NCBI GenBank assembly: GCA_963842525.1
Contig: CAWJGT010000003.1
Location: forward strand, 608,001 to 672,000
From: an uncultured Holophagales bacterium
Lineage (GTDB): Bacteria; Acidobacteriota; Thermoanaerobaculia; Multivoradales; UBA5704
Length of the DNA: 64,000 bases
Direction of reading: 5' to 3'
This document shows, in pieces, positions 1 to 55,152 of this stretch; within the stretch, counting starts at the first letter, position 1; the number at the start of each line of letters is the position of its first letter. The translations under genes and the position numbers were made by a program. The notes beneath the pieces are model-generated. The model saw only the letters and a program-made list of their open reading frames with translations, did not search any database and was not told the DNA's origin.

Positions 1-18315
<18,315 letters not shown>

Positions 18316-24679: not shown

Positions 24680-25428
24680 CCCTACATACGGGGAGAGTCT
24701 TTCAGTGCGCGTAAGTTCGCGGAAACGGAGACCCTGCGGTTCGAGCCCTTACCCTGCTGGACGCATCTCACGCCGGAGCAGTATCGAGCGAAGATCGCCG
24801 ATCTGATCGCCGAGATCGAGGCTGAAGCGGCGGCCCAGAGAGAGCAGGCCGGTTGCCAGCCTCTGGGAGTCAAGGCGATCTTGCGCCAGAAGCCGACTGA
24901 TCAGCCGGTGAAGACCAAGATATCTCCTGCCCCGCTCTTTCACGCCTTCAGCCGCAAGGTCCGCAAAGAGCTCTACGAGGCTTATGGCTGGTTCGTGGCG
25001 GCGTTCCGGGAGGCGGCGGACAAGCTCAAGGCTGGAGATCGGAATGCACGGTTTCCGGTAGGGAGCTTTCCACCTCATCTTGCCGTTCGTCAGCGATCAG
25101 CCACCCCGCGGTCTCATTCCCGTGCCCGGGTAAGCCGGGCCGGTCGCCACCAACCTTCAAAGCGCCCGTCCGCCTATGCCTGCTTGGTCGGGCAGAGTTG
25201 CGCCCACAATACCTCCAGTCCGCTCCAGATCCTGACGTCCCGCGGGAAAATTCGCGTTCGCTCCTCTTTCGGTGTGTCCCGCGAGGATTGCCCGAGTGCT
25301 TCGGAAGGGTGAATGCAGCCTGACCGCAGGCGCCGGGACCTCAAGGCTTTCCAAGAAACCCCAGGCACCTATTCCGGCGCCGACCGCCAATACTCGGGGC
25401 TCCCCAAGAAACCCCAGGCACCTATTCC
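24680..25428 (+). mobile_element. 5'-truncated Y1 (IS200-like/RAYT-type) transposase remnant with conserved 3' tail
   Basis: PLPCW...YR..I..L..EIE...SPAPLFHA...YEAYGWFVAAFREAADKLKAGDRNARFPVGSFPP recalled as the C-terminal half of this family; no HUH N-terminus; tail ends in two copies of CCAAGAAACCCCAGGCACCTATTCC (25351-25375, 25404-25428). Confidence 0.7.
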
Positions 25429-25508
25429 CGGCCGCCGATCCCCCACAACTGCTTCGGCGTTATTAGATCCAGCAGTTCACGTAGCTTCATTGTTTCCGGG
25501 TCTGGCAT
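25429..25508 (-). pseudogene. Truncated cassette gene start (MPDPETMKLRELLDLITPKQLWG...)
   Basis: RBS and ATG just after attC 25534-25594; cut by the element terminal motif. Confidence 0.5.
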
Positions 25509-25533
25509 TGCGAGATCTCCGTCTTCTCTGACG

Positions 25534-25594
25534 CAGTAACGCCGCTGCCCCTCACCGGCTGCGTCAGCAGTCCGGTGCAGGGGCCGAGTGAGCC
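25534..25594 (-). other. attC site (R'' mutated to GGCTCAC)
   Basis: Minus strand GGCTCAC...GCACCGGACTGC-TGAC-GCAGCCGGTGAG...GTTACTG hairpin with an extrahelical base. Confidence 0.75.
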
Positions 25595-25678
25595 GTTTGT
25601 CTTGAAATGTCCTCGACCTTAACTTGCACCCTGCGATTTAGCGCCCGCTTTGTCACCATCTTATCTATGTAGGGTCTG

Positions 25679-26635
25679 TCAGACTGCTCTGCCACATCTG
25701 AAGCTGCACTCAAACCACACAGGCGATGAGTCCTTGGCAATTACATAGATTGCTGCTGTCACCTCTAGCTGTGCTGCGGAAAACAAGAGCACTAGCGAAT
25801 TGGTCTCGAAGACAGCCTTTGCAAAGGGTGAAAGCTTTACTGTCCTCGGATTTCTCGGATTACAGATCGAGTGTCTTAAAACCCAATCGTAATCACCTAC
25901 ATGAACCCTTTCGGGGTGCTCTACATAGGAGAGGAGGTGCTTGTTGATCTCGGGCCCGATGTCGTTGACAACCCAAGAGAGAATACCCACATCAAGAGTC
26001 TCTGCGGTCACCAATCCAATATTATCGACTGCCACGTGGACCTCGACGTTGCTCTTGGGCTCCCTCAACGAGGGCGGTGGCTGCTCGAAGGAGACAGCGG
26101 CATCAAGGGTAGGTTGCTGCTTTCTGCCAAGAATGAGATCGGACAACAAGAAGTCGGGCGCCTGTAGGGTAGACTGATTGAGCCTCAAGAAGTACTTGAG
26201 CCGCCCTGCCTCTACACAAGGGACAAGGGCCGGCGCTCTCCTCACCGCAGTTACCACAACAGGCCCAGCAGGATAATCAACAACGTGTATCCGGGGTAAA
26301 GGTGAAAGGAAGGGAGCCATATCGTGTAAATGCCCCTCCACCCACTTATCCAGGGATTCATTACCCGTTTGCAGACACGCTGAGATTTTTCTGGGCGGCT
26401 CGGAAACACCGACGATGAGTACTCCTCCTTCACTGTTGGCGAAGCCACTTATTGCTTGACGGATGGCTTTGACTGCCTCCTTACTGTTGCCCTTGTTAGT
26501 AATCTTCCCATCCTTATACTCTAGATGCTGATCCTCTTCTTGGTGGATTTCAACGAACTTCTCCAGGGTGGAACCGGAAAATTTGTAGCCACTCAGCAGG
26601 GCCTCCATGGCTTCCTGGGAATCCGTAAACGGCAT
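25679..26635 (-). CDS. Schlafen/AlbA_2-domain protein (gene cassette)
   Basis: EEDQHLEYKDG and AISGFANSEGGVLIVGVSE motifs; lower GC; flanked by attC sites. Confidence 0.8.
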   Translation of the reverse strand: MPFTDSQEAMEALLSGYKFSGSTLEKFVEIHQEEDQHLEYKDGKITNKGNSKEAVKAIRQAISGFANSEGGVLIVGVSEPPRKISACLQTGNESLDKWVEGHLHDMAPFLSPLPRIHVVDYPAGPVVVTAVRRAPALVPCVEAGRLKYFLRLNQSTLQAPDFLLSDLILGRKQQPTLDAAVSFEQPPPSLREPKSNVEVHVAVDNIGLVTAETLDVGILSWVVNDIGPEINKHLLSYVEHPERVHVGDYDWVLRHSICNPRNPRTVKLSPFAKAVFETNSLVLLFSAAQLEVTAAIYVIAKDSSPVWFECSFRCGRAV

Positions 26636-26653
26636 CTTAGAACGTCCCTATTC

Positions 26654-26712
26654 GGCTAACAATCAAAAGCTCACCGGCGACGCCAGTCGTCCGGTGAAGC
26701 GTGGGGTTATGC
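26654..26712 (-). other. attC site (59 bp)
   Basis: GCATAAC CCCAC GCTTCACCGGACGAC TGGC GTCGCCGGTGAGC TTTTGATT GTTAGCC; the upstream gene stop TAA lies within R''. Confidence 0.9.
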
Positions 26713-27379
26713 GGGCCGCCCTGGTTGGGAGCGGTTCGCGATTAAGGTGAGAATTGCCTTCATGAACTCCTGCACTGCGTCAATCCAAGGCTCTACTTCT
26801 CCCGCAGTGATAGCTTCGACTCCCTCGCTGGCATCCCTTTGAGGTGAAACTCTGTCGGCTCGATGGACGATCTGATGGCGACGCCTAATTAACTCGTCAA
26901 GCTCGGTGAATGTGTGACGAACCACGGCGGCGTCGATATTTAGACCCGCCAGAACGGTACAGATTTGGGTTGTGTCGTTGTAGGTTGTCGTCAGAAGATG
27001 CTCCTGTACCGACCTCTGGATCAGCTCCAGGACAGTTTTATCTCTATGAGCAGCCAATTTTCCAAGGAAAAACTTTTCCGGTCGACCAGATCCGCCAGAA
27101 CCAGCGATAGGAACACTGTTTGAGCGTTGTTTCGTCAGAGAAAGGGAGCAATATCATGGCGATCGAGCGAAGAAAATCTTCCAGAGTAGCGTGCACTAAC
27201 ACCACCGCTGACCTAATGATATCAGAGAAAGTATCGACAGGTTCTTGCTCGCCGCTTCGGTTGAGCAACTTCCGATAAAGTGCAATGAGCACCTTGGCTC
27301 GTGCAAGATTCTCGCTGTGCCTATCGACTTGAGTCCGTATGAACCTGATAAGTTCACGATAACTGGAAAACGCCTCCAT
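26707..27379 (-). CDS. HEPN-domain protein (RiboL-PSP-HEPN-like; gene cassette; frameshift near 27100)
   Basis: DIIRSAVVLVHATLEDFLRS and RRHQIVH (Rx4H) in two frames; ATG at 27379 after the cassette crossover at 27404. Confidence 0.75.
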
Positions 27380-27397
27380 AAAGTCCCTACTTTCACC

Positions 27398-27430
27398 GCA
27401 TAACCTCATCATGAACTTCTACCCATCCCG
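27398..27430 (-). other. Putative attI-like first crossover (G/TTATGC at 27404)
   Basis: Exact complement of the first cassette's R'' (GCATAAC); no attC hairpin seen upstream. Confidence 0.6.
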
Positions 27431-27528
27431 CCACCAACTTGCCTCGGGCCTGCTTCCGACTTCCACATCCGCGAAGACAAGGTGCATCGACATACTTCTA
27501 TGTGGTTGACCTACTTACGCTTAGAGCG

Positions 27529-27573
27529 ATTCTACGGTGCTCAACCATTTTCGTCAACGACTCAGTGGTTGAC
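27529..27573 (-). promoter_or_regulatory. Sigma70 promoter (Pc-like) with overlapping palindrome
   Basis: TTGACG (27557-27552), N17, TAGAAT (27534-27529); GTCAAC-N9-GTTGAC at 27553-27573. Confidence 0.75.
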
Positions 27574-27954
27574 CGCCTATGTAATCGGGTCATGGGATGG
27601 TCCGGTTTGCTTCGGGATTGCGACAGCGTCGGCGTAAGTCACTGAGGGTTCTAAGGTTCTCTCGCCCGAGGAGAGTGAATCTGACCGCCTAAGACGCATC
27701 TGACGAAGGTGCAGAGGAGCTTAGCCGGTCGAAAATCGGCCGTAAGGCTGCCGCGGCGTGTGCGGCCTCAGGGCTGGAAGGGTCTTCTGCCGAAGCGCTT
27801 ACAGGATCGGACCACTCCTGGGGTGTGTCGGCTTAGACGGTGACCGGCCGACCGCCTATGCCGGCAGGCAGGTGCCAGAGCTTTCTTCTGCCCCGGATGG
27901 CGTGCCTGCGGCTTGGGTCGGACTGGGGTAAAATGTGTCTCCCTCGTTGGCGGC

Positions 27955-28074
27955 TTACCGGAGGCGCTCGAGGGAACGGATCCGGGTCTCGTGGGCCGCC
28001 TGGATCAGCGCGATGTCGGCGCGGACCTGCTCTTGGAGCGCGCGTCGGCGCGCTTCGTACTCGCTGCGAGTCAT
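27955..28074 (-). CDS. Short helical hypothetical protein (39 aa, possibly prematurely stopped)
   Basis: AGGAGG RBS then MTRSEYEARRRALQEQVRADIALIQAAHETRIRSLERLR; too short for the ORF track. Confidence 0.55.
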   Translation of the reverse strand: MTRSEYEARRRALQEQVRADIALIQAAHETRIRSLERLR

Positions 28075-28147
28075 GGTGTCCTCCTGGCTTTACAACACGA
28101 GCGGAGGACGGCCGAGGTCGAGCGGTCTCCGGCGCTTCCTGGTCTCG

Positions 28148-28504
28148 CAGCGGACGGTGTGGACCGCACTCAGGACGATGTTGAGTGCGTTCCGGACGGT
28201 GCGAAGCACGTTCCGGATGTTCCGCAACGCGTTCCGGATGGTTCGTTGCCCGCTTCGAACCGTCCGCAGCGCACTTCGGACGTTTCGCAATGCGCTCCGG
28301 ACGTTTCGTTGTCCGCTCAGGACGGTCCGTAATGCGTTCCGGACGGTGTTGTGCGGGCCTCGGACGATTCGCAGTGCGTTCCGGACGGTTCGCTGCAGAC
28401 TCAGAACCGTCCGCAATGCCCTCCGGATGATTCGATCTGCGTTTCGGACGGTTCTTTGTCCATTCAGAACCGTCCGCAGGGCACTCCTGACCATCCGTGG
28501 CGCG
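28148..28504. repeat. Degenerate 21-bp tandem array (about 17 units, YTCCGGACGGTTCGCARTGCG-like)
   Basis: Strict 21-bp phasing; produces heptad-like ORFs on both strands. Confidence 0.9.
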
Positions 28505-28617
28505 GTCAGGCGCCTACCAAGGCCGAGTCTCGATCGACCGGATCGCATCTGTCGCCGCTCTCTGCGGGTTGCGAACCGTCCTTCCAGCGAGGAGGTTCAT
28601 CCGCTGGCCGGTCTGGA

Positions 28618-29236
28618 TCACCTCCAGGCAAACCGCGGCTGCTCGAAGTGCGCGACCCGGGTGTCCCGGCCGTGCACGGCAACTTCGGCGAACTGGTGGA
28701 GGACGGCGGCGGTCGGCGCGTAGAGGAGGCCTCTTGGCGGCAGGGACAGGGCGAGGACCGGCGGGCCGCCCGGAGTCCCGGGCTGGAGGACGACCCTTTC
28801 CGGCGTCAAGTCTTCGATCGGCAGGAGCTCGACCGAGGCGACTTCGCGCGGATCGGGGCGCAGGACGGCATCGGGTGTCCCCCAGACGACGACCGGCGTG
28901 ATCACGAACCCCGAGCGCGTCGGGTAGTCGTCCAGGCAGCCGAGGATGTGCTCCGGCGGCAGGCTCAGTCCGACCTCTTCCTCGAGCTGCACGGAGGGCG
29001 GCGGCTTCCGCGGTCTCCCCCGGGTCGCGCCGGCCTCCAGGGCAGGCCCACTGGCCTCCGTGGCGGCTCAGCCCCGACGCCCGGACCGTGAGCACGACGC
29101 AGGCCCGGCCCTCCGCATCGGGCACGACCACGACAGCCACCGCGGCCGGCCGTCGTTCCTCGATCGGAACGCTCCGCCGCTCGAACCGGGCGAGGTGAGC
29201 TTCCAGCGTTGCCCGGAGGCCGTCTTCAAAGCGCAT
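28618..29236 (-). CDS. NUDIX CoA pyrophosphatase-like protein (frameshift near 28990)
   Basis: AAVAV, LTVRASGLSRHGGQWACPGGRRDPGETAEAAALR/ELEEEVG, PDPREVASV. Confidence 0.85.
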
Positions 29237-29242
29237 TGTGAA

Positions 29243-35804: not shown

Positions 35805-38800
35805 TCAAGCAGGAGCATCACGGCCGGCCGAGCCGCTTAAGAACTCATCCACGTATGGAAAACTCCTCTCAAGGATTTCTTTCAATCTCGTGTCGACTTG
35901 CGTGGTCAGCCGCTTGAGATCGAAGAACTCCAAGACCGCACGCAGATGGGCTTCACTACCAAATGCCAAACCGTGCCGTTCCGCCAAGTACCTTGCCAAA
36001 ACGTTCAGTTCGCTCGGTGGAATCTCCTCGAATGTTCGCGGCCCCCTGCTTCGCAATCTGATCGGAGGGCTCCCCTTCATTCTGACCACGGAGAAAAGGA
36101 TGCCGCTCTTACCTGTCTCATCTTCGCAAATGACATGTTCCTGTCGAATGGCATGGTAAAGAGCCTTGTTCATAGTGCTCTTGAGCTCAGGGCCCAGCCG
36201 CTTGATGCCGCAGCCCCTCAGGTAAATGTCGTAGGCTCGTTTTGCAACCATTGGACCTTCGACCTCGACGATCCGGACAATGCCTTCCGAGACTCCCTGC
36301 TGGTTGATGCTGCGAGGGTCATTCCCAGTAGGGCCTGCATATTCAACATACCTGCTGAATGGCAGGTCGGCATCTCGCGAGTTGACCGAATAAACGGTCA
36401 GTCGTGCAATGCTAAAGGGATTTCCGTCTCCAGTCGACGGCTGCAACCGAACCTCTGCTGGAGGTGCATCCTCCCTTACTGAATTGGTTCGTGCCGGCGG
36501 TGCGTCAGAAATCGATACCTGAGTGCTCTCGACAATTTCAACAGGCATCACGATGTCTTGACCAACCGCCGGCCCAGTGGGAGAACATACGACGCGGCGC
36601 TCGGTATGCACACTCCTCGGCGCTCGTTCGGCGCCCATCGGTTCGATACCTCGCTCATCTAATGTCTTCAAAAGATTGTCCAGCGTGTCCTTCCGCCGAC
36701 GGATGAAGGCGGAGGCGAAACACCGCCAGAACGCCCAACCGGCGCGTTCCAGGACGCGCTGGCGTTGCATGTCGTCGGCCCATTTGTCTGCTCCATGATA
36801 CTTGTCTCCGTCGCACTCGACCGCCAGCCGAGCGTCATTGTGTCCCTCCACCACCATGTCGATACGGTACTGCCCGACCCTTACTTGGGGCGTCACCCAG
36901 TAGCCTCGCTGCGTGAGCTCGTCGTATATCTCACGTTCGAAAGGTGATTCGCAAAGTTTGCGCAAGTCGTGCGTGCGTACTTCATCCTGAGCGAAGGGTG
37001 TCGCGAAGTGTGAGATGAGGTTGCGCCGCAGGCGGTTCGCTTGCGAGAGGTGTTCCGGGCCTACCGAGCGCACCAGATACATCCGGTCCCTTGCGCGCGA
37101 AGCAGCTACGTTGAACCGTTGGTCATACATGATTCCGGCGAGCGTCCCGCCCACCTCGTTGGGCGCTGACACCATGGAAAGAAACATGATGTCACGCTCT
37201 TTGCCCTGGAACGTGCGGGCATCACCGCACGCGATGCGATGGCGTTGCATGAGCTCCGGCCCGACTTCATCGGATTAGCCTCTCCCATATCTCCCGCGCC
37301 TGCTTGTCCGCGAGCAGCGAGACGACCCCGATGGAGCGGCCTCCCATGTTGGGGTCAGCCACGATCGCCTTGATTTCATCGACGATGAACCTCGCCTCGG
37401 GGAGATTGACGTCGCCTCTGCGGTAGCCGTCTTCCACGACCACGTCAATGAGGGGCGGGTCGAGACGCTCGGAAGCTTTCGGCAGGCGCAATGGCCGTAG
37501 CTCGTGGTTGTAGAACTCGCGCTTGGAGTACTCGATGATTGGGCCGACACAGCGGAAATGTTCCTTCAGCATCACCGCGCTCTTGGCGAATACTACTTTG
37601 AACAGGTCATAGATCGAGCGTTCCGGCGACATCTGCGGCCGATAGGTCTCCACCTGGTTCCCTAGGAAGCGGCTCATGAGGCTGCGAATCTTCTCCTCCT
37701 CAAGGCCGACGCCTTCGGGGGAGACTTGCTTGTCGTCGCCGACGATGAGCACCTTCTGTCGCCCGTAACAAGGAAGGCAATGCCGTTAGGTCTGATTGCG
37801 ACGCTTCATCGATGACGACGAGGTCGAAGCAGCCCAATTCTGCAGGAAGTGATTCGGACACGCGGTAGTGGGGCATGATCCAGCACGGCACTGCGGGGTT
37901 CGCTTGCGATGCTGCCATACGCGCATCCTGCCTATAGCGCACCGCGCGCTTGCCGGTGCCCTTGCCGATCTTCTGAATAGCGTTGAGATAAGCCTGCAGG
38001 GCGGCCCGAATGCTGGGCGAAGCGTTCTCCGCGAGTTTCAGCCATGTTCGTTTCACCACGATGTCACGATAGGCGCGCGACAAATCGCTCTCCACTTCGT
38101 GGCGCTCCTTCGCCAGCCTCTTCAGCTCTTCTTGCGCGTCAATCGATTCGAGATAGGTGGCCAGACGCCTCAGGCGCCAAGCGCTGCGCCAGTTGTCCGG
38201 CAGAAGACCGTCCACCGTGCCCTCAAGTGGCCGCTTGAGCGATGCGGCGTACTTAGGTGCGCCGGAAGCCTCAACTTTGTCGCAGACCTCACGCAAGGCG
38301 GCGAGATGCGTGCCCAGGCCCAGCGCGCGGGATAGCTCCGCCATCAGCGCCGACCACTCGGCCTGCATCCGGGCGTCTTCAATCTCAGGATTACCCAGCG
38401 TTTCGGCGAGAAACCGGCGAATGTCCTCTATGACGCGGCCGGTGCGGCCTTCCAGTACCTTCTGAAAGCGCTCCTTGTGAACCCAGACATTGGCGAGCCG
38501 GTTCTTGGTGAGGTGGTGCCGCAGCGCCTTCTCCAGCTCAGCGAGTCGCTGCTTGTTATTCGCCACCTCGCGAACATGAGCCCAGTTGGGGAAAACGTGA
38601 GAAGCCGCGGCGCAGAGTTCGCTTTCCGCTTTCACTAGAGCCTTCACCTTGAGGTAAAGGGCGTAGTCCTGGGCGGCGGCAAGGCCGTCTTCCGGCTTGT
38701 CCCCCGGCACGACTTCAAGTCGAAGCTCGTGGGCAAGAGCGTTCCAGCGCAAGGCCAGCTCACGCAGGCATTTCAACAACGCCAGATGCTCGGCGACATG

Positions 38801-41145
38801 CTTCCAACTCTCGGTATTGGCAGGTGGATTGCCGAGAACACGAATACTGTCCAACTGCTTCTTCTGCGCGGACCTGCCGAACAGTCCTTTCAGACCAAAG
38901 GGGCTCTTGCCCTCGGCGAGATTCCCCACAGCCTCCGCGAGCTCGATATCAAGCTCGATGCCTGCGGGGGTGGTAACCGGCCGCTCAAGAAATGCCTTGC
39001 GCCGGTCGACAGCCTGCTCAAGCTCGGCGCCGAGGGCTTCCAGAATCGACATCAGGTTGTCGTTTCCGCCGCACCGCAGCCGTTCGCGCATGGCGACCGT
39101 CCAGGGACGATGCGCCTGCGCTACCTCGTCGCGTAGGCGCTGAAGCGCTTCGATGTGCGTGAGGGTTTGCTGAGCGAGAACGAGCGTCTCCTGGGTCGAA
39201 TCGGCGAGCGCCGGAACGTCGCCATTCTCCACGCTCTGTTTCAGCTTTTCGAACTGGGACAAGTCCTGGTGGACTCCCAGCAGCGTCTTGGAGTCAGGAA
39301 ACTCCACGAGTTGCGGCAGCGATGCATCGAGGTAGTCGATGTCTTGGCCTAGAGCACGCCTTGCCTCCCGTAGCCGCATAACATCCGCGTCCAAGAACTG
39401 CGGGGCGAACTCGGGAGTGATTCCAAGCGTGTCGGGAATCCATTCGAATTGGTCCGAGATTCCCGACCACATCGCGCGCCGCGTCTTGAGGGTCGATCTC
39501 CTCGGTTTCAAGCGTGATCTTGGCGAGGTTCCTCTGTGCCCATTCACCAATCTTACGGTCAATGCTGGCAAGCCTGCCATGGAGGGCATCAATGGATTCC
39601 TCAAGATGGTTGATGGCCCTTGCGGTGCTTCCGCGGTCGAGGCCCTGCACCTCGGAGGCAATCTTCTGGATGGCGTGCTCGAATTGCTTCATGCCCTCCT
39701 GTTCGCTCGTCAACAGCGAAATGGCGAGCGGGCGGATTTCTTCGGGAAGCTTTCCTGCAGCACCCCCAATGCCGGGTCCTTCATCGAGGTCACGAGCACA
39801 CGCTTGCCTTCGGCTAAGTAGTGGCAGATGACGTTAGCGATGGTGTGCGTCTTGCCCGTGCCAGGCGGACCCTGCACAACGACGCCATCGGAAATATCCA
39901 ACAGCTGGATGATGCGGACCTGCTCGTCGTTGAAGGGCTTGGGGAAGTAGAGGTCGCGCGCCTTCTTGCCGCTCGTGCTGGGCTCGGAGTGGTATAAGGC
40001 GGAGACACCACGGAAGGGTGGCAGTTCGACGACCGGGTTGGTGGTGTCCGGGTCGGTCACGACTGCGGCCACCGCAGGCGGGTAGGCCTCGGCTTCTTCG
40101 GCTTGTTTCTTCAGCTTTTCCAGGTCCTGCAGAAACAGGCTGTTGGTGCGCGGACGTGCAAAGAGCACCCATGTGTCGGTGACTTTAAGCTTGTCGTCCG
40201 CCTTGGGTAGCGTCCGGTCTTCCGCCGGCACTTCGTTTGGCCAGTAGATACCGTTCGCGTCGAGGTTGGTAACCGCCGTGCGAAGCAGAGGCTCGAAGGT
40301 GCCGCGGTCGAACGGTGAAAAGGTTGTCGTAGCTTTCTCGAAGAACTCCTTCGCCGCCTTCTCCAGATCGGCAACGCCAGGGTTGTCGACAGATGCATAC
40401 CAGTCGACCTCAATGCGAGCATCGACATCCCGCGGCCGGATTTCCACTTCGGCCGTCACGGGGTTGAGCGACATCTCGACCAGACGTCCTACCACCGGAT
40501 AGCTCACGGTAGCGCCATTGGAGTTCCAGATGCCGAGGCCCACGCCCCAGACGAGCTCGAGTTGCGCTTCGACAATGCCGCCCTCGAGCTGCTGCTTGAG
40601 CGTGAAGAGCTGGGAGTAAAGGCGGATGGTCTTGCGGCGGAACTTCTCCTCCTCGGCCCAGGGGCGCCACTTCGTGTCGAGGTAGGTGACGAACTGGGCC
40701 TTGACCAGGGCGGACTTGTCGTAGTCGGGGAGCATGACCGTCGTCTTGGGGGCGATAACAGGTTTGCCTTGCTCAGGTGGTCTTAGGACGATGAACAATG
40801 CGTGCCCGCTGCAATCAGGCTTACGCCGTCCACGGCCTCCCGTAGCCGCGGCTCTTCCGTTGGCCCCTGCGTCATCTGCACCCAGGGTCGCAGCACCGCG
40901 CTGGTAATATCCGGCGGCCTTGTCTCGTGCAGTCGCTCAACGGAAAGCCAAACCTCGTCCTCGCTCTCGGAGCCATTGACGTTTATCCGGATGCCCGGCA
41001 ACCCTCGGATCTCGTGCTCGTAGAGAGCGAAAAGACCGTGTGCGGCAACGGAAGTAGGTGGCTTGCCCCGCAACCGCGCGGACTGCTGAGCGAATTCGAT
41101 AAGAGAGAGAAGCCGATTTCCTTCAATACTCATGATACTTCCCAT
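35805..41145 (-). CDS. Large SF1 (UPF1/Dna2-like) helicase with C-terminal DUF559/Vsr-like nuclease; several frameshifts
   Basis: VQGPPGTGKT, IDEASQ, GDDKQ, EHFRC, FQGKERD, RFNVAASRARD, ESPFE...YRIDMVV...AVECDG...RQRVLERAGW; lower GC than flanks. Confidence 0.85.
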
Positions 41146-44719: not shown

Positions 44720-46282
44720 GAGCCTGTGAAAAAATCCCGGTAAGCGGTTCGTAGCGGAGCGTATCCATGAGATACTTACTGCATGAGCGACACTCTGTTC
44801 CCTATCCTGCGCCGGAAGTGAGTGCTGAGCCGCAAAGCGAAAGGGGTTCCTCGTTTGGTGGTTCTAACGGTCGCAGATGGAACTGCGCGTGGACCTGGAA
44901 AGTCTTCTGCCGCCGGATCACGTTGCGCGTGCGTCTGGGAGTTCGTGGAGTCCTGGATCTGAGCCCTCTGTACGCGGAGGTGCAATCGGTGGAGGGGGGT
45001 GCGGCGTCAGCCATCGACCCGCGGATCTACATGGCCTTATGGTTGTACGCACGATTGAGGGCGTGGGCAGCGCGCGAGCCTGGAGCGTCTGACGCTTCAA
45101 CACGATGCGTATCGGTGGATCTTGGGGGGTGTATCGGTGAACGACCACTCTTTGTCGGACTTTCGGGTGCAGCACGAGGAATTTCTCGATCAGGTGCTGA
45201 CGCAGAGCGTGGCGGTGTTGATGGAGCAGAAGCTGGTGACACTGAACCGTGTGTCGCAGGACGGCATCCGTGTGCGTGCCAGTGCCGGTGCGGCCTCGTT
45301 TCGGCGTCAATCGAGTCTGGAGCGCTGTCTACAAGAGGCACAGGAGCAGGTGAACGCCTGCGCGAGGAGCTGGAGAAAGACCCGGAGGCGACGAATCGTC
45401 GTCAGACGGCAGCCCGGCAGCGCGCGGCGGAGGACCGCCAGCATCGGGTCAAGGCGGCGTTGGCGCAGATGGCAGAGGTTGCGGCCAAGAAGCCAGCGGA
45501 GAAGAAAGACCAGGCGCGGGTGTCGACGACGGATGCCGAGGCACGGGTGATGAAGATGGGGGATGGAGGATTTCGTCCAGCGTACAACGGTCAGTTTTCG
45601 GTCGACGCCGAGACGCAGATCGTGGTGGGAGTGGATGTCAGCAACAGCGGCAGCGATCAGGGTCAGTTGGTGCCGATGCTGGAGCAACTGGAAGAGCGCT
45701 ATGAAGTGATTCCGCCAGAGAGCTTGGTCGATGGTGGTTTTGCCGGTTTGAAAGATATCGAGAAGGCCAGCGAGTTGGGCACCACGGTCTATGCGCCGGT
45801 CGCCAAGCCGAAGGACAAGACGCGCGATCCGTATGTGCCTCTGTCGACCGATTCACCGGCAATCGCGCAGTGGCGCCAACGCATGGGCACACCGGAGGCC
45901 AAAGAGATCTACAAGCAGCGGGCGTCGAGCGTGGAATGTGTCAACGCTCTGGCTCGCAACCGCGGGCTGCAACGTCTGTTAGTGCGAGGCCTGCACAAGG
46001 CCCGAGCGGTGCTGCTTTGGTTCGCCATTGCCCACAACCTGATGCGCACCCTCTCGCTGGGCGCGGGCTGCGTCGCATCGGCATAAAGGTCAGGGCCTCG
46101 CGGCGAAAAGGAGGGTAATTCCCCTGTCCAAGTCTGTTTTCGACCGCTTGTCGCTGCCTTAGCTCGCGTCGGATACGATGTGGCCCCTGACCGCGCACGC
46201 TTTAGGATACCTCACATCTATTATGCGCCTTGTTACCGCCCTCCGCCTTCCAATCTCGGACCCGCGATTCCTTCACAGCCTC
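44720..46282 (+). mobile_element. IS1182-family insertion sequence
   Basis: Imperfect IRs GAGCCTGTGAAAAAATC and GATTCCTTCACAGCCTC; TGA direct repeats at 44717-44719 and 46283-46285. Confidence 0.85.
44783..46086 (+). CDS. IS1182-family transposase (frameshifted)
   Basis: DLESLLPPDH, QDGIRVRASAG, STTDAEARVMK, PAYNGQ, VDGGF, YKQRASSVE. Confidence 0.85.
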
Positions 46283-47844: not shown

Positions 47845-47866
47845 GGGGCCGGCTCCCGCCGCTCCT

Positions 47867-49779: not shown

Positions 49780-49872
49780 GGCGGATCTTTTACCACAAGA
49801 TGCGCCCTCGGTTCTCGGCAGATGACACCGCTCCCAGGAGAGCTCGTCGCGGCATACAATCCTGGGCTCGCC

Positions 49873-50934
49873 ATGAAGAAGCTCCTGCTGGCCCTTCTGT
49901 CGATCGTGCTCGCCCTCGGCGCCGCCGAAGGCGGGCTGCGGCTGTTCTACGGCGCGAAGGAGCCGGAGGACTTCCGTGTGGCGCTCCGCCGGGCCGAGCG
50001 GACCCGCCCGATGCCGGGCGGCAAGCTCACCCTCGGCGAGATGGTGCAGGCCAGCCGTTTCGAGGATGTGGTCTATGAGCTGAAGCCGAACCTCTCAGGG
50101 GTCTTCAAGGGAGCTCCCATCCGCACCAATTCGCGCGGGCTGCGGGGGACGCGCGAGCACAGCCTGGAGAAGCCGCCGGGGACGTTTCGGATCGTCGGGA
50201 TCGGCGACTCGAACATGTTCGGCTGGGGGGTCGGGGAGGGCGAGCCCTATCTCCAGATCCTGGAGCAGCGCCTCGACGAGCTGCCGAACGGCCGGCGGCG
50301 GTTCCAGGTGCTCAACTTCGGCGTGCCCGGCTACAACGCGGCCATCGAGGTCGCCTCCTTCGAGCACAAGGCCCTGGCCTACGACCCCGACCTCGTCGTC
50401 ATCCACTTCATCGGCAACGACTTCGGCCTGCCGTACTTCATGCAGCCGCCCGAGGCCAGGCAGGCCGCGGCCCGTTCCTACCTCTGGCAGCTCCTGGAGG
50501 CCCGCTTCGGATCGTCCCAGGACGAGGTCGACCCCGATCTGCTCGGCCATGACCGCAGCCGGCTCGATCCGGACTACCGGGCGCAGGTGCGCGGCCAGTA
50601 CCAGCACATGCTGGGCACGGACGGCTACAAGCGGGCGATGGCGAAGCTCGCCCGTGTGACGCGCGCGAGGGGCATCCCGGTGATCGTCATGGCCCTCGGC
50701 GACGTCGGGGAGCGGGGCGGCCTCTCCCGCCGGGTGGCGGCGGCGAACGGGCTGGGATTCCTCAACGCGGCACCGCGCTTCTACTCCTACCTGGTCGAGA
50801 ACGGGCTGGGCGCCGACAAGCAGGCGTGGAAGAAGACCTTCCGCATCCCCCGCGACGGCCATCCCAACCAGGTGGCGCACCGGCTCTACGCCGAGGTTCT
50901 GCTCGCGGAGATGGCGCGGCGGGGGCTCGTCTGA
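49873..50934 (+). CDS. SGNH/GDSL hydrolase family protein
   Basis: TNSRGLRG, GDSNMFG, NFGVPGY, GND, DGHPN. Confidence 0.9.
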   Translation: MKKLLLALLSIVLALGAAEGGLRLFYGAKEPEDFRVALRRAERTRPMPGGKLTLGEMVQASRFEDVVYELKPNLSGVFKGAPIRTNSRGLRGTREHSLEKPPGTFRIVGIGDSNMFGWGVGEGEPYLQILEQRLDELPNGRRRFQVLNFGVPGYNAAIEVASFEHKALAYDPDLVVIHFIGNDFGLPYFMQPPEARQAAARSYLWQLLEARFGSSQDEVDPDLLGHDRSRLDPDYRAQVRGQYQHMLGTDGYKRAMAKLARVTRARGIPVIVMALGDVGERGGLSRRVAAANGLGFLNAAPRFYSYLVENGLGADKQAWKKTFRIPRDGHPNQVAHRLYAEVLLAEMARRGLV

Positions 50935-51156
50935 TCTGCCGCAAAATCGTTGCCGCGTAATGTGCGGCGTAATCTTGGCCTCTCATAATGCCCCCAGAGG
51001 TTGAGGCTGGCGGCCCAGACCAGGGGCCAGGGGACGCGCAGGGCTTCGGCTCGGGCGAAGTCCGCGCCAGAGGGTGTAGCACACCAGCCTCAACCTTCCC
51101 TCCACGGCGGTTCTCCCGAGCCGCCTCTTTTTTGTCCAGATGTGCCGGAAAGAGCC

Positions 51157-51900
51157 TCACCATCCCATCATCTCGATCGAATAGGGGAGCATCTTCCGCC
51201 ACCAGGGCCAGTCATGATCGACGTCGTGCCCCCAGACATCCAGGAAGTGGGGGATCTCCTTACGATGGAGCAGCTCCGAGAGCTGCCGCGAGGCGTGCGG
51301 CGCCTCGTAGGCCCCCTGGCCGGTGAGGACGTGGATCTGGCAGGACGTGCGCAGGAGGTGGAGGCTGTGCCCCTCCAGGTTGGGCAGATACCAGGCCGGG
51401 TTGTTGAAGTAGACGTTGTCGTCGCTGTAGCCGTGGAGGTAGTCCGGCGCCAGGTCGCAGAAGCCGCTCATGGCAATGGCGGCGTCGAAGAGGTCGGGCC
51501 GGCGAAACAGTGTGTTGGCCGCATGGAAGCCGCCGAAGCTCGCCCCGGCGGTGGCGACGCGCAGGTCGGGGTTCTGGCAGGCTCCCCGGATGTAGGGGAC
51601 CACCTCCTCCTCGACATAGCGGGCGTAGAGGGCCTGCCGCCGCGCCTTTTCGGGCACGGGCAGCCCCTCGTCCATCCACGACAGCTTGTTGATGCTGTCG
51701 ATCGAGAAGATGCGGACCCGTCCAGCCTCGATCATCGGCCCGGCCGCGCCGACGAGCCCGAAGCGTTCGTTTTCCAGGAAATCCGCCGCGGCGGTGGGGA
51801 AGAGCAGCACGGGGTGACCCCAGTGCCCGTACGAGACGATGGGCATGTCCTTGTCGAGGATCGGGCTGTGCCAGCCGTCGATCTGCTGTCGCAGGTCCAT
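51157..51900 (-). CDS. Esterase (alpha/beta hydrolase)
   Basis: YGHWGHPVLLFPT, GASFGG, HDWPWWRKM. Confidence 0.9.
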   Translation of the reverse strand: MDLRQQIDGWHSPILDKDMPIVSYGHWGHPVLLFPTAAADFLENERFGLVGAAGPMIEAGRVRIFSIDSINKLSWMDEGLPVPEKARRQALYARYVEEEVVPYIRGACQNPDLRVATAGASFGGFHAANTLFRRPDLFDAAIAMSGFCDLAPDYLHGYSDDNVYFNNPAWYLPNLEGHSLHLLRTSCQIHVLTGQGAYEAPHASRQLSELLHRKEIPHFLDVWGHDVDHDWPWWRKMLPYSIEMMGW

Positions 51901-52047
51901 TCCGCTCCCTCCTGCCGTGAGCTGCCCGGCATGTGGGCGGGGAGGATATCCGGGAGACGGACGGGGGGCAAGCGAAGGCCGTGGGCGAGCTGCACGATGG
52001 CTGTGGTAACCTCCAACGGCGACGCCGTCCCGTCCTTCCGAGCTGCC

Positions 52048-53626
52048 ATGCCGCGCTTCTTCAACACCGCCGGTCCCTGCAATCCGGCCGATCACTACAT
52101 ACTGCCGCCGGAGCGTCGCCTGCCGGATCTGCGGGAGCTGATCGAGCGCAAGCTCTACTTCACCCTCCATGCGCCCCGCCAGTCGGGGAAGACCACCTGC
52201 CTGGAGACCATGGCGCGTCGCCTTGACAGCCGAAGGGAGGTATGCGCCGCAATGCCTCGCAAGCTGCGAGACCGGCCAGACGGCGGGGAGCGATGTGGAG
52301 CGTGGGGTCGGAGCGGTGCTGCAGCTCGACCGAGCGGCGGGCGGCGGAGCTTCCGCCGGATCTTCGGCCTGAGCCGCTCGCAGGCTATGCGGCTATTGAG
52401 GCGGAGAGCCGCTTGGTGGCCTATCTCGACGCCTGGTGCCAGAGACCGCCCGGCCGGTACGTGCTGTTCCTCGACGAGATCGATGCACTGCGTGACGAGT
52501 CGCTCTTGTCGGTGCTGCGCCAGCTCCGGTCCGGGTATTCGACCCGGCCGCCCGCGTTCCCGCAGTCGGTGGCGCTTGATCGGTCTGCGGGACGTCCGGG
52601 ATTACCGCGTCCGGCTCCGTCCGGAAGCCGAGAGCCTCGGGACCTCTTCGCCGTTCAACATCAAGGTCCGCTCCCTCACCCTCGCCAACTTCTCGCAGGA
52701 CGAGGTCGCCGAGCTCTATGGCCAGCACACCGCGGAGACCGGACAGGTTTTCACGCCCGAGGCGGTCGCCCTTGCGTGGGAGTTGACCCGCGGTCAGCCG
52801 TGGCTGGTCAATGCCCTGGCCGCCGAAGATGGTGGACCGTCTGGTGCGCGACCGGGCGGTTGCGGTCGAGGCTCGGCACGTCGAGCAGCGCCAAGGAGAT
52901 CCTGATCGAGCGCCGCGATACGCACCTCGACTCGTTGGTTGACCGGCTGCGCGAGCTGCGCGTGCGGCGCGTCCTCGAGCCGATCCTGGCAGGGGAGCTG
53001 CTCTCTCCCGACCTGTTGGAGGACGACATCCAGTTCGTGAAGGATCTGGGGCTGGTCGTATCCGGCCCGGCGGGCTTGGAGATCGCCAACCCGATCTACC
53101 GCGAGGTCATCCCCCGTGCCCTGGCCTGGGTCGTCCAGGAGTCGCTGCCGGTGCCCCGGGCGCCGTTCATTGCGCCGGACGGGACCTTGCGGATCGATGC
53201 CGCTCCTTGACGAGTTTCACCGAATTCTGGTGCCAGCACGCCGAGTTTTTCCTGGAGCGTCAGCCCTATTCCGAGGCGGCGGCACAGCTCGTCTTCATGG
53301 CATACCTGCAGCGGATCGTCAACGGCGGAGGTTTCATCGACCGGGAGTATGGGGTGGGCCGCGGGAGGATCGACCTCTGTGTCCGCTGGCCGCATCCCGG
53401 CGGCCTTCAGGTCTGGGCGGCCGAGCTCAAGGTCTGGAGGAATGGCCGTCCCGATCCTCTCTCGGAGGGTCTCAAGCAACTCACGGCCTACCTGGCTCAT
53501 CTGGGCCTCGATTCCGGCGCTCTGATCCTCTTCGACGGCCGGCCCGCCACCCCACCCATCCCGGAGCGCTGTGTGCGGACTGAGGTCGAGCACGAGGGCC
53601 GCAGGATCACCATCCTGCGGCTGTAA
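52048..53626 (+). CDS. P-loop ATPase with C-terminal PD-(D/E)XK-like domain (frameshifted)
   Basis: MPRFFNTAGP, HAPRQSGKTT, LDEIDAL, SPFNIK, TRGQPWLVN, REYGVGRGRIDL, AELK. Confidence 0.85.
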
Positions 53627-53649
53627 GTGTGGGATTCCCCGCTCCCGAG

Positions 53650-53726
53650 CCTCAGGTGCCAGGCACTTATTCTCCTCAGGTGCCAGGCATTTATTCTGGG
53701 GGATCTGCACTTATTCTGGGGGATCT
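53650..53726. repeat. Tandem copies of the GGCACYTATTC terminal motif
   Basis: 24-bp duplicate CCTCAGGTGCCAGGCAYTTATTCT (53650-53697) and 20-bp duplicate GCAYTTATTCTGGGGGATCT (53687-53726). Confidence 0.85.
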
Positions 53727-53760
53727 AGACACGGATGGCGGGAACAGGTATTCTCAGTTC

Positions 53761-54069
53761 ATGAGTGCCCGTCCCGCCAGTGCTCCTGGTCAGCCGATCC
53801 TTCTGATCGTCGAGGATCTCGAAGACCCGCGGTTTTCCGTCTCCTCGCCGCTCCGGGTCGAAGCCTACTGGGAGCCCGAAGGGGTGACGGTCCACCATCC
53901 GGAGTCTGACGTTTTCGGCTATGGCAAGGACGAGGCCGAGGCCTTGGACGATTTTCGCGCGGCGCTCGCCGAACTGTTCGTCACCCTGGACAATGACCGC
54001 GTCTCTCTCGGCCCAGCCCTTCAGGGTGTCTTGCGGGTCCTCGATTTCCACCTTCACAAGCGTTCGTGA
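53761..54069 (+). CDS. HicB-like protein
   Basis: VFGYGKDEAEALDDFRAAL, typical of the HicB N-terminal fold. Confidence 0.6.
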   Translation: MSARPASAPGQPILLIVEDLEDPRFSVSSPLRVEAYWEPEGVTVHHPESDVFGYGKDEAEALDDFRAALAELFVTLDNDRVSLGPALQGVLRVLDFHLHKRS

Positions 54070-54076
54070 TCCGCCT

Positions 54077-54355
54077 GTGTCGATCAGCGCCGAGGTCCTG
54101 GACCGAGCCTGGGGGAAGGTGGGGATGTCGGTGCAGGATCGGGGTGTAGACCGATGGGCCTATCTGTTCGTGGATGGCAGGCGAGTCATCGCGACGCGGC
54201 GGTCGAGAGGCTCGGGCAAGATCCCGGGTCAGGTTCCGCACCTGATCCGTCAGCAGATGAAGCTGAACGAGGAGCAATTTCGTGCCTTGGTCGATTGCCC
54301 TTTGACCCGCGAGGGCTATATCCAGATCCTTCGCGACAAGGGCCTTCTCGGGTAG
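54077..54355 (+). CDS. HicA-like protein
   Basis: IRQQMKLNEEQFRALVDCPLTREGY C-terminus; adjacent to the HicB-like gene. Confidence 0.6.
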   Translation: MSISAEVLDRAWGKVGMSVQDRGVDRWAYLFVDGRRVIATRRSRGSGKIPGQVPHLIRQQMKLNEEQFRALVDCPLTREGYIQILRDKGLLG

Positions 54356-54530
54356 ATCTCTCGATGGGGAGAGAGGTGACAAAGACTTCGAAAGCGGCTC
54401 GGGGTCGTGTTGTGCGCGGTAGAGGGTCGTCCTCGGAGTCCTCGGTTTCCAGGTAGGCTTGGCTGAGGATGTCCCCTGCCAGGTAGAACGTTCGGCTGCA
54501 CGGGCCAGGAAACGCATGGCACTTATTCGG

Positions 54531-54778
54531 GGCCGCATCCCGGCGGCCTTCAGGTTTGGGCGGCCGAGTTGAAGGTCTGGAGGAATGGCCGTCCCGATCC
54601 TCTCTCGGAGGGTCTCAAGCAACTCACGGCCTACCTGGCTCATCTGGGCCTCGATTCCGGCGCTCTGATCCTCTTCGACGGCCGGCCCGCCACCCCACCC
54701 ATCCCGGAGCGCTGTGTGCGGACTGAGGTCGAGCACGAGGGCCGCAGGATCACCGTCCTGCGGCTGTAGGTGTGGGAT
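54531..54778 (+). repeat. Direct-repeat copy of the ATPase gene 3' end (partner 53388-53635)
   Basis: 248 bp, 5 mismatches by eye. Confidence 0.95.
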
Positions 54779-54790
54779 AGCCGCGGGGCC

Positions 54791-55152
54791 GCGGACAAGC
54801 TCAAGGATGGCGATCGGAATGCGCGGTTCCCGCCAGGGAGCTTTCCGCTTCATCTGGCCTTTGTCAGCGATCAGCCGCCCCGTGATTTCATTCCCGTGCC
54901 TGCTGGGTAGCCGAACCGGCTGCCAATCAACTCTCAGAAGCTCTCTCCCTTCTCCTGCGTGGCGACAGAGTTGTGCCCAGCCTACAGCCAGTCGCCGTCA
55001 GATCCCCAAAGAGTGCGGGAAAAATCGCTCTGATCCTCCTCGGGTGCGTCCAAGAGGCTCGCTCAGGCCCCTCGGGAGGATGAATACAGGCTGGCCGCAG
55101 GCCCCGCGGGCCTCCCATACTCAAGGTTCCCCAAGAATCCCCAGGCACCTAT
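54791..55152 (+). mobile_element. Second, shorter Y1 transposase 3' remnant with tail
   Basis: Encodes ADKLKDGDRNARFPPGSFPLHLAFVSDQ; alignable to 25016-25372; ends CCAAGAATCCCCAGGCACCTAT. Confidence 0.8.

Follow-up and report, generated by a model that had tools for sequence, protein, structure and literature searches.

Dead 3' pieces of an IS200-like insertion sequence at the tails of two integrase-less integron cassette arrays

Many bacteria capture genes mainly by means of integron cassette arrays, and how such arrays end, split or turn into integrase-less clusters is poorly understood. Among the mobile elements that dwell in arrays, the IS1111-attC group and the group IIC-attC introns keep a fixed orientation and insert into the attC site itself. 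By the figures given in Cury et al. 2016 (PMC4889954), insertion sequences occur in 12% of integrase-less arrays and in 23% of complete integrons. In Halorhodospira, an HUH single-strand transposon stands at the tail of an integrase-less array, and the authors noted a clustering of elements that depend on single-stranded DNA (PMC7923331); the same source describes, for IS91/ISCR, one-ended events that take adjacent DNA along.

The locus described here lies in a window of 64,000 nt (the whole stretch of DNA that was analyzed; coordinates without a prefix refer to it) from the genome of an uncultured Holophagales bacterium. It shares with the Halorhodospira case an HUH transposon at the tail of an integrase-less array. 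As presented in the passages of PMC7923331 that concern it, that case is one instance of an element with tnpA and tnpB, given without an analysis of orientation or frequency, whereas the linkage to arrays found here is recurrent and orientation-fixed across a whole Y1 family and several genera.

Two cassette arrays and the remnants at their tails

The window holds five minus-strand hairpin attC sites with a bulged base, each behind a minus-strand ORF, two in array 1 and three in array 2. They were found with lineage-specific models (R1 and R2), which gave 61 attC sites in the whole genome. Pairing in the attC sites held for 87.7% of cells, compared to 69.9% in shuffles (none of 500 shuffles reached the observed value), and 15 of 20 pairs had changed on both sides, in an alignment that was itself fitted to the model. 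No integrase domain was found in the 59 ORFs between 20 and 64 kb of the window; integrase-like genes lie elsewhere in the genome (C3:356814, C9:1900160, and C25:539082), with scores under the TIGR02249 cut-off. Both arrays are integron cassette arrays without an integrase (CALIN). Around the tail of array 1, the features are as follows.

24131-24688, minus strand: repeated tail module, holding a small ORF and a run of tandemly repeated 19-bp palindromes (24180-24400)
24689-25374, plus strand: remnant 1, matching positions 859-1542 of the full-length element copy A (blastn, 81% nucleotide identity over 698 columns)
25377-25427, plus strand: second right-end fragment of 50 nt, aligned with the terminal 50 nt of element A
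25429-25503, minus strand: start of an ORF, 25 codons, read from the sequence
25528-25597, minus strand: last attC of array 1, a hairpin with a bulged base (R1 72.4 bits, R2 65.3 bits)
26652-26716, minus strand: attC of array 1 (R1 64.6 bits), behind the HEPN-like ORF 26707-27057

Remnant 1 holds transposase residues ~171 to 317 with a frameshift (tblastn aligned it in two pieces, residues 171-301 and 295-317) and continues through the untranslated 3' stretch into a right end that is intact. The second right-end fragment retains a stretch missing from the tail of remnant 1 and is therefore a distinct fragment, not a simple duplication of that tail. Position 25428, where the right end stops, is 100 nt away from the last attC; the minus-strand ORF at 25429-25503 is cut there 25 codons after its ATG and may be a truncated cassette gene. 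An ORF (25679-26635) with a Pfam match to AlbA_2 (Schlafen) separates the array's two attC sites. On its other side, remnant 1 has removed the first codons of the small minus-strand ORF of the tail module, two copies of which, 86 to 95% identical (C9:883927-884762 and C1:201282-200359), both extend 97 nt beyond window position 24688. Since the 5' junction of remnant 1 truncates both the element and this repeated module, it is a deletion join and not a transposition end. An island at 24133-28609 is flanked by 121-nt direct repeats, which do not coincide with remnant 1. The tail of array 2 is organized as follows.

53388-53635, plus strand: gene tail, copy 1 (248 nt, 98% identical to 54531-54778)
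about 53652-53726, plus strand: fused tips, the left-end tip AGGTGCCAGG joined to the right-end tip GCAYTTATTC, twice, then an extra right-end tip
54505-54530, plus strand: solo right-end-like tip ending in CGCATGGCACTTATTCGGG, adjoining gene-tail copy 2
54531-54778, plus strand: gene tail, copy 2 (98% identical to 53388-53635)
about 54779-55152, plus strand: remnant 2, element positions ~1176-1540 (blastn, 91% nucleotide identity over 375 columns, 54781-55152)
55246-56385, minus strand: last ORF of array 2, from the ORF list, with no Pfam match
56411-56488, minus strand: attC (R1 59.1 bits)
57193-57257, minus strand: attC (R1 80.1 bits)
58103-58172, minus strand: attC nearest the head of the array (R1 65 bits)

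Remnant 2 comprises transposase residues 277-316, the 3' untranslated part and the right end, which at 55152 stands 94 nt from the last ORF, behind which neither R1 nor R2 found an attC. Both remnants keep the right end closing in CCCCAGGCACCTAT; the 22-mer CCAAGAAWCCCCAGGCACCTAT occurs three times in the window, always on the plus strand (25351, 25404, and 55131), and none of 100 shuffles contained any match. The fused tips at 53654-53726 contain AGGTGCCAGGCAYTTATTC twice and one more GCACTTATTC, and a similar fused left/right tip motif is found at C1:326737. The solo tip (54511-54530, GGCACTTATTCGGG) directly abuts the duplicate at 54531. The gene of the duplicated tail gave, at its last ORF, only a sub-threshold PDDEXK_9 match (23.7 bits, cut-off 25.5), and a domain search found no ATPase domain in it.

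Most of this agrees with an earlier note on the window, which had read the two features as 3' parts of a Y1/HUH transposase element with different 5' breakpoints and a common 3' end, standing at the tails of both arrays, one cutting a cassette gene at 25429 and the other lying about 90 bp from an attC-less last cassette, with related motifs near 53650-53726 and 54505-54528. Its starts (24680 and 54791) were each about 10 nt off; it had also described the motif as abutting a duplicated ATPase tail, of which the duplication is real and the ATPase label was not borne out by the domain search.

The full-length element and its transposase

A Pfam search of both remnants gave no match, the pieces covering only the C-terminal, non-catalytic part of the protein, and their transposase identity was taken from full-length copies. 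The full-length HUH gene, for which the earlier note had proposed a search, was found twice, both times on C19.

C19:420877-422418: full copy A
C19:303289-304822: full copy B

The full-length element is 1,542 bp long and has one gene, encoding a 317-aa Y1/HUH transposase. Copies A and B are 85% identical exactly from GAGGTGCCAG, with which the left end begins, to CACCTRTTC at the right end, which closes in CCCCAGGCACCTATTC; outside this block their flanks are unrelated, and no target duplication was seen at either copy. Long terminal inverted repeats are absent, the tips sharing only the 7-nt inverted repeat AGGTGCC / GGCACCT. At the left end we found a palindrome, GAGGATCCTC, with 5 weak pairs and without a supported consensus helix, and at the right end 26 predicted pairs, 3 of them with changes on both sides. 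No common target motif was seen when left-end flanks were compared (A, B, C20, C3:1292k, C9:1819k, C23, L078, L132, L071, and L077), and a search for an empty site and for identical copies of the element found neither. Both features of the window are dead, 5'-truncated 3' pieces of this 1.54-kb IS200-like insertion sequence.

The element belongs to a multi-copy, decaying Y1 family, which has mostly broken copies at 22 loci of this genome and further copies, many carrying internal stops, in 29 of 31 genomes of the order. Mapping of GGCACYTATT over the genome, as the earlier note had suggested, gave 35 copies against 5.6 expected, and CAGGCACYTATT was present 11 times against 0.32 expected. The note's picture of a fixed end with variable truncation was borne out in part: fragments bearing the right end are commoner (9 loci, compared to 4 bearing the left end), and their tips are frequently duplicated in tandem, but left-end fragments without a right end also exist (C3:1291499-1292247 and C20:95149-95289).

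In the transposase, H62, H64, and Y123 (the HUH motif and the single tyrosine) are kept without exception by all 16 homologues aligned. Y1_Tnp was the sole Pfam match at E ≤ 0.1, scoring 18.2 and 21.7 bits on the two full copies, below the cut-off of 23, and a precomputed match to it is present on many close homologues. The best NCBIfam model was REP_Tyr_transpos, at 39.9 bits far under its equivalog cut-off of 80, and the JGI label for homologues is "REP element-mobilizing transposase RayT". A PDB profile search matched ISDra2 TnpA (E 0.002) and TnpAREP (E 0.017), as did structural comparison of the AlphaFold model (pLDDT 78; E 1.3e-5 and 1.9e-5, respectively); of the 21 Foldseek matches at E ≤ 0.001, those listed were all Y1 transposases (ISDra2, TnpAREP, IS608, and IS200). 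The C-terminal half (~170 residues) had no structural match in the search with the predicted model. Judged from these models, the protein is a single-domain, single-tyrosine Y1/HUH enzyme of the RayT/IS200 kind, with the IS200/ISDra2/TnpAREP fold.

With the IS200 group of the IS200/IS605 family (IS200, IS608, and ISDra2), the element thus described shares the Y1/HUH fold, the HUH motif, one conserved tyrosine, one gene bounded by two defined ends that are not identical, the lack of target duplication at full copies, and many decayed copies. It differs in the length of the transposase with its unmatched C-terminal part, in its size of 1.54 kb with long untranslated parts and short inverted tips, and in lacking a conserved target of four or five nucleotides upstream of the left end. 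RAYT/TnpAREP (PDB 4ER8) came first among the NCBIfam models and was one of the two top matches by fold, and solo tip motifs above chance are a further likeness; the solo motifs here, however, number tens and not hundreds, and the 22 mostly broken loci with their pseudogenes differ from the single-copy domesticated gene and high-copy REP hairpins of a RAYT/REP system, an assignment that we rejected. IS91/ISCR elements, which have HUH chemistry in common with this one, were likewise rejected: they encode a large two-tyrosine HUH enzyme and have ori/ter ends, whereas the listed fold matches here are single-tyrosine Y1 proteins, and no second-end read-through structure was seen.

Position and orientation of the family relative to attC sites

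In this genome, an attC is found no more than 3 kb away from 6 of the 22 Y1 loci, against 0.56 expected, and none of 5,000 random placements reached 6. Control transposase families (DDE_Tnp_1, rve, and IS110-type) were near attC sites at 5 of 39 loci (Fisher p = 0.18 compared to Y1). The enrichment next to attC arrays that the earlier note proposed to test is present, but proximity to attC is shared with other transposase families, and only the orientation is specific to this one. At all six array-linked Y1 loci, the attC sites follow the 3' end of the transposase gene and run antisense to it, a geometry found in only one of the five near loci of the control families. The same arrangement was seen in another genus (G010), where attC sites were found near 4 of 18 loci, each time on the 3' side and antisense. 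Among 78 public Thermoanaerobaculia Y1 loci, a limited set of related assemblies that are not independent, 21 had attC matches; 58 of these 59 matches were antisense, and of the 59 matches, 44 lay 3' of the gene and 15 lay 5' of it. Phasing of ORFs to attC sites at L055 confirmed the strand call for 8 of 8 sites. Two exceptions come from G004, one locus being co-directional with an attC 3.7 kb off and another having an attC only on the 5' side.

As with the IS1111-attC group and the group IIC-attC introns, orientation inside cassette arrays is fixed; unlike theirs, the ends of the Y1 element are separated from the nearest attC by 100 nt to several kb and fall inside cassette ORFs or behind them. 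No attC was found on the left-end side of full copy A (within 5.5 kb) or B.

A proposed course of events and its rivals

The reading we favor, with a probability of roughly 0.6, is that an IS200-like element settles strand-specifically in cassette arrays, reaches their tails and decays there. In the arrays where it lodges, the family is antisense to the cassettes, its sense strand being the one to which the attC bottom strands belong; this would come about by strand-specific insertion into single-stranded array DNA. New cassettes join an array at its head, and those past a fixed insertion can only be lost, so that an old insertion would drift to the array tail; ordinary deletions would then remove the left-end side and leave the cassettes that remain facing a right end that is still intact. 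In the window, the remnants mark and delimit the arrays and did not move them: both arrays stop where they do because dead transposon ends stand at their tails. Taken alone, the window offers the more modest observation of two dead transposon ends. A family that keeps one orientation across genera would mechanically link two systems built on folded single-stranded DNA, and it offers a concrete, testable candidate for the delimiting and fragmenting of arrays. More tentatively, this may be a large Y1/HUH family specialized for cassette arrays, which inserts into the strand with folded attC bottom strands and exploits the single-stranded state on which the integrase acts. By doing so it would cut arrays, fix where they end, give rise to integrase-less ones and perhaps occasionally carry cassettes; if so, array-dwelling elements would comprise a third kind, in addition to the IS1111-attC group and the group IIC-attC introns. 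Against the favored reading stand the search that found neither an empty site nor identical copies, the left-end flanks with no common target, the two exceptions in G004, and intact copy A: drift to the tail would predict attC sites on its left-end side unless these were later deleted, and the 5.5 kb there hold none.

The earlier note had instead proposed one-ended or rolling-circle HUH transposition, which would start at the fixed right end, stop at variable points to give 5'-truncated copies, and carry adjacent arrays along. The excess of right-end fragments with variable 5' breakpoints and their tandem tips would suit this origin, and the passages of PMC7923331 on one Halorhodospira array raise the same idea. 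We consider it very unlikely here, given a single-tyrosine fold unlike the IS91/ISCR-type enzyme, the left-end fragments without a right end, and a 5' junction of remnant 1 that joins two truncated sequences. Moreover, the arrays lie outside the element, past its right end, with no second end or repeat bracketing array and remnant together, and array-linked copies come from at least three lineages (57 to 91% identical in protein) whose 3' flanks are unrelated. Of the note's further suggestion that the element mobilizes or delimits arrays, the tail position upholds the delimiting; nothing was seen to show mobilization, and the 121-nt repeats lie off the remnant.

The gene could also be an integron accessory or a cassette passenger, moved by the integrase in reverse-oriented cassettes or acting on arrays (by ending them or by turning them integrase-less), and not an independent insertion sequence. 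It lies between attC sites in 5 of the 21 array-linked public loci, its orientation relative to attC is nearly invariant, and the protein is 55 to 65% identical across genera and public Thermoanaerobaculia assemblies. We nevertheless think this improbable: distances to attC vary (259-891 nt on the 5' side, 275 nt to >4 kb on the 3' side, in the public loci), flanks show no likeness beyond the element ends, copies decay freely, and about three-quarters have no attC nearby (16/22 in this genome, 14/18 in G010, and 57/78 public loci). The narrower idea of the transposase gene as a gene cassette was rejected, there being no conserved attC spacing and no left-side attC at A and B. Coincidence, by which plastic, gene-poor arrays collect any insertion sequence and let it decay with no specific link between Y1 and attC, draws on the control loci near attC sites and on the general frequency of insertion sequences in arrays, as reported in Cury et al. 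2016 (PMC4889954). It is about equally improbable, since it does not account for the fixed geometry, which just one of the five near control loci shows, nor does replication direction explain the orientation. In contrast to IS200/IS605, where the top strand lies on the lagging-strand template, there is no replication-strand bias, judged against a weak skew: in this genome the sense strand coincides with the G-rich strand at 7 of 19 Y1 loci and, for the cassettes, in 14 of 27 arrays, and in G010 (origin and terminus placed from dnaA and GC skew) 8 Y1 loci are co-directional with replication and 10 are head-on.

A Y1 element with full-length copies elsewhere in the genome

The whole genome (9.95 Mb, 34 contigs, with the window at C3:608001-672000) was searched with the two remnants, i.e., the dead 3' pieces of a Y1/HUH element at the tails of the two cassette arrays in the window. 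Two copies of full length, both on contig C19, were recovered and named A (420877-422418) and B (303289-304822), so that the complete HUH gene sought in the earlier note was located. A and B were 85% identical across 1.54 kb, while the sequences outside were unrelated, placing the left end of the element at GAGGTGCCAG and the right end at ...CCCCAGGCACCTATTC. The element carries a single ORF of 317 codons (element positions 349-1302). Measured against the full copies, the pieces in the window are as follows.

Element pieces in the window
24689-25374: remnant 1, element positions 859-1542, with a frameshift near the ORF end
25377-25427: separate, distinct 50-nt right-end fragment behind the right end of remnant 1
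54781-55152: remnant 2, element positions 1176-1540

Three right ends, each with its own 5' breakpoint, are therefore present in the window, and the initial observation of a shared 3' end with variable 5' truncation was borne out. The 22-mer first noticed at this end occurs three times in the window (25351, 25404, and 55131), and none of 100 shuffles contained any copy. The right-end tip GGCAYYTRTT was absent from 10 loci of the related genomes G010 and G004 and is specific to one subfamily; the left-end tip GAGGTGCCAG was kept more widely. In two soil sequencing runs, 0.05 of the sampled words was found in each.

Since the remnants span no more than the C-terminal half of the protein, they gave no Pfam match, and their identity was therefore taken from the full copies. 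The full proteins scored 18.2 and 21.7 bits against Y1_Tnp, just below the cut-off of 23, and 39.9 bits against the NCBIfam model for REP-associated tyrosine transposases (cut-off 80). Database searches returned at least 1,815 homologues at E ≤ 1e-5, mostly of 305 to 317 aa and approximately 60% identity, many of which carry PF01797 and for which JGI uses the name RayT. H62 and H64 (SNHYHL) and Y123 were invariant in an alignment of 16 homologues. A profile search of the PDB matched ISDra2 TnpA (E 0.002) and TnpAREP (4ER8; E 0.017), and an AlphaFold model (pLDDT 78.2) matched the same two proteins (E 1.3e-5 and 1.9e-5, respectively) and also resembled the IS608 and IS200 transposases. The matched part comprised the first ~115 to 150 residues, and the C-terminal half of the model had no clear structural match. 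Of the 31 genomes examined from the order, 29 carried the Y1 family; a single genome had as many as 24 matches, and many of the matches contained internal stops. The family is thus multi-copy and decaying, and therefore acts as an insertion sequence rather than as a single domesticated RAYT. By comparison, a DDE_Tnp_1 transposase gene at 44767-46086, for which three more loci with an identical score exist in the genome, looks like an insertion sequence that was active recently, in contrast to the Y1 family.

Position and orientation of the element at attC arrays

Five minus-strand sites of 65 to 78 nt, lying behind ORFs and folding into a stem with a bulged base, were assigned as attC, the integron cassette recombination site.

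attC sites in the window
25528-25597, minus strand: array 1
26652-26716, minus strand: array 1
56411-56488, minus strand: array 2
57193-57257, minus strand: array 2
58103-58172, minus strand: array 2

R1, a covariance model built from these five sites, found them and no others in the window and gave 46 sites at E ≤ 0.01 across the genome; with an nhmmer profile made from these 46, the genome total rose to 61 sites in 35 clusters. Across 41 sites taken from three genomes, pairing was seen in 87.7% of cells compared to 69.9% in shuffles (none of 500 as high), and 15 of 20 pairs showed changes on both sides, compared to 30 to 41% in slid controls, in an alignment that is fitted to the model and leans towards structure. 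No integrase domain was detected among the 59 ORFs at 20 to 64 kb of the window, and both arrays are therefore short integrase-less clusters. Elsewhere in the genome, three identical integrase-like genes (C3:356814-357623, C9:1900160-1900969, and C25:538791-539600) matched TIGR02249 in two pieces (positions 4-177 and 236-315) with identical scores of 146.8 and 93.3 bits (cut-off 265), each copy adjoining attC sites of its own orientation. The right end at 25428 lies 100 nt from the last attC of array 1 and interrupts an ORF, leaving its first 25 codons, and that at 55152 lies 94 nt from the attC-less ORF 55246-56385. The two low-GC cassettes of array 1 (25679-27412) encode defence-like AlbA_2 (Schlafen) and HEPN (RiboL-PSP) ORFs; a low-GC stretch at 35805-40798 is also defence-like, with a REase_MTES_1575/DUF559 protein and P-loop helicase-like ORFs.

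Merging of BLAST matches gave 22 Y1 loci in this genome, six of which were within 3 kb of an attC (remnant 1, remnant 2, C3:1291499, C9:100755, C9:1080178, and element A), and the genome-wide attC matches alone sufficed for all six. Random placement put a mean of 0.56 loci near attC, and none of 5,000 trials reached six. However, loci of control transposase families (8 DDE_Tnp_1, 11 rve, and 20 IS110-type) were not significantly less often within 3 kb of an attC (5/39; Fisher p = 0.18), and closeness to arrays is therefore a general habit of insertion sequences. As reported in PMC4889954, 12% of arrays lacking an integrase contain an insertion sequence, and so do 23% of complete integrons. The enrichment beside attC arrays that the earlier note asked to be tested thus held against chance but did not set this family apart. 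In all six near loci, the attC lay 3' of the transposase gene on the opposite strand, a convergent geometry seen in only one of the five near control loci. It is thus the fixed orientation, and not the nearness, that is specific to the Y1 family, and the portions of the literature covered hold no account of an orientation-fixed, family-wide link between a Y1 transposase and attC arrays.

Relatives were compared in the same way. In G010, from another genus, 4 of 18 loci were within 3 kb of an attC, all four with the same 3'-side antisense geometry. One of the relatives' loci, L055 of G010, is a 5'-truncated piece (residues 141-305) at the end of an array in which all eight attC sites lie behind the stop codon of a minus-strand ORF, and this phasing confirmed the attC strand call. 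The G004 loci were mixed: one convergent at 3.1 kb, one co-directional at 3.7 kb, one inside an array with antisense attC on both sides, and one with antisense attC on the 5' side only. Among 78 public Thermoanaerobaculia loci, gathered via protein alignment and searched with the broader attC model R2, 21 had matches at E ≤ 0.01. Of the 59 matches, 44 were located 3' and 15 were located 5' of the transposase gene, and all but one (58) were antisense to it. The loci are not independent, coming as they do from related assemblies. By locus, the attC were only 3' in 11, on both sides in five, and only 5' in five. The proposal that the remnants cap cassette arrays therefore fits both window arrays and L055, but 10 of the 21 public array-linked loci have attC on the 5' side, and the element is not "always the cap".

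How the element may have come to lie in the arrays

The best reading is that of an IS200-like element lodging in arrays, on the strand with the attC bottom strands. Y1 transposases work by single-strand chemistry, and together with the almost uniform antisense orientation among the public matches, this would be consistent with strand-specific insertion into single-stranded array DNA. As established integron biology has cassettes joining at the head, those beyond a fixed insertion could only be lost, which would leave the element at the tail; its left-end side may have been lost afterwards through deletions. Alternatively, the orientation bias could arise through selection against sense-oriented copies. 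The weak points of this best reading are that no empty site was found in the genome (no paralogue of either right-end flank, of the insert 53600-54560, or of the last ORF), that no identical copies of the element were seen, that its left ends had no common target, and that element A had no attC beyond its left end. A search for consensus hairpins gave no supported helix at the left end (5 weak pairs) and 26 predicted pairs at the right end, 3 of which had changes on both sides.

The earlier note had instead proposed one-ended or rolling-circle transposition, which could mobilise or delimit the arrays. Right-end-bearing fragments do outnumber left-end-bearing ones: the former comprise remnant 1, its second piece, remnant 2, C9:1820048, and C3:4958, as well as tips at C3:184626, C3:1292835, C23:393622, and C3:736405, and the latter C3:1291499-1292247, C20:95149-95289, C9:1819953, and C23:395067. 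Yet fragments with a left end occur too, and the enzyme belongs to the IS200 type with a single tyrosine. At the 5' junction of remnant 1, element position 859 is fused to a repeated module (...CCCTACATA/GGCGAATTC...) of which two other copies run 97 nt further, so that both partners are truncated, as a deletion leaves. Nor do the 121-nt direct repeats bounding the island 24133-28609 bear any relation to the remnant ends. We therefore consider mobilisation of arrays by the element very unlikely. The repeats themselves (24012-24132 and 28610-28730, 93% identical) flank a 4.5-kb low-GC island that contains array 1 as well as remnant 1. A NUDIX gene has the right copy within its 3' part, the repeat being a duplicated piece of this gene, and the island therefore looks integrated into the gene's end.

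Other causes of the geometry were rejected. Replication direction did not account for it in this genome, where the G-rich strand was the sense strand for 7 of 19 Y1 loci and for the cassettes of 14 of 27 arrays, or in G010, where GC skew and dnaA indicated an origin at about 6.3 Mb and a terminus at about 2.8 to 3.0 Mb and the Y1 loci were 8 co-directional and 10 head-on. Descent from one composite was discarded, as array-linked copies span lineages 57 to 91% identical in protein and have unrelated flanks. Cassette-like insertion abutting attC was likewise dismissed: the distances vary, the flanks between right end and attC are unrelated, and those of loci L053 and L054 part ~270 to 290 nt past the ORF, well short of the attC site. 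On the 8.38-Mb contig C3 of G010, all 7 transposase matches below 3.1 Mb were on the minus strand, and 13 of the 15 above 3.6 Mb were on the plus strand, a switch that does not coincide with the inferred origin or terminus.

Decayed copies and tandem repeats

At 53.4 to 55.2 kb, the first gene-tail copy is followed, after an 18 nt gap, by a direct fusion of left-end and right-end tips (AGGTGCCAG/GCAYTTATTC), which is present twice, plus one extra right-end tip. The second gene-tail copy has a solo right-end-like tip before it and remnant 2 after it. CCAG is common to the left and right ends, and the fused motif could therefore be the end-to-end deletion of a former full copy; the locus looks like two differently decayed copies of a putative "gene tail plus element" unit.

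Element tips were often tandemly duplicated together with 2 to 7 flanking nucleotides. Right-end duplications had units of 12 to 16 nt (e.g., C3:184626/184640, C9:8771/8783, and C23:169410), a further site was the right flank of B (C19:~303270), and the left-end tip CCCCTAAAGGTGCC was tripled in the public locus L077 (~9860-9905). Two short internal-deletion derivatives, possibly non-autonomous forms, join a left-end piece to the last ~340 nt of a Y1 element (C9:1819953-1820383) and to element positions 1177-1276 (C23:395067-395198).

Fifteen arrays in the genome are built from a palindromic tandem repeat of 19 bp (core GGATAAGCTTATCC), among them 24180-24400 of the window, within the module 24131-24688, and C1:200789, C1:699831, C3:180967, C7:37132, C7:144161, C8:64803, C11:258779, C19:361802, and C25:137713. 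Ten of the 15 lie 169 to 1187 nt from an attC, all ten on the tail side. The repeat, which is accompanied by a small ORF, looks like a conserved module at the end of cassette arrays. Altogether, 302 merged tandem arrays with periods of 19 to 21 nt or multiples, of several unit types, occupy 69 kb of the genome. Arrays of 21-nt units are located at the head of each cassette array in the window (28172-28507 and 59153-59736); another lies upstream of C9:1069871, an integrase-like fragment. A tandem array with a 20-nt period is found 15 nt from the left end of element A.
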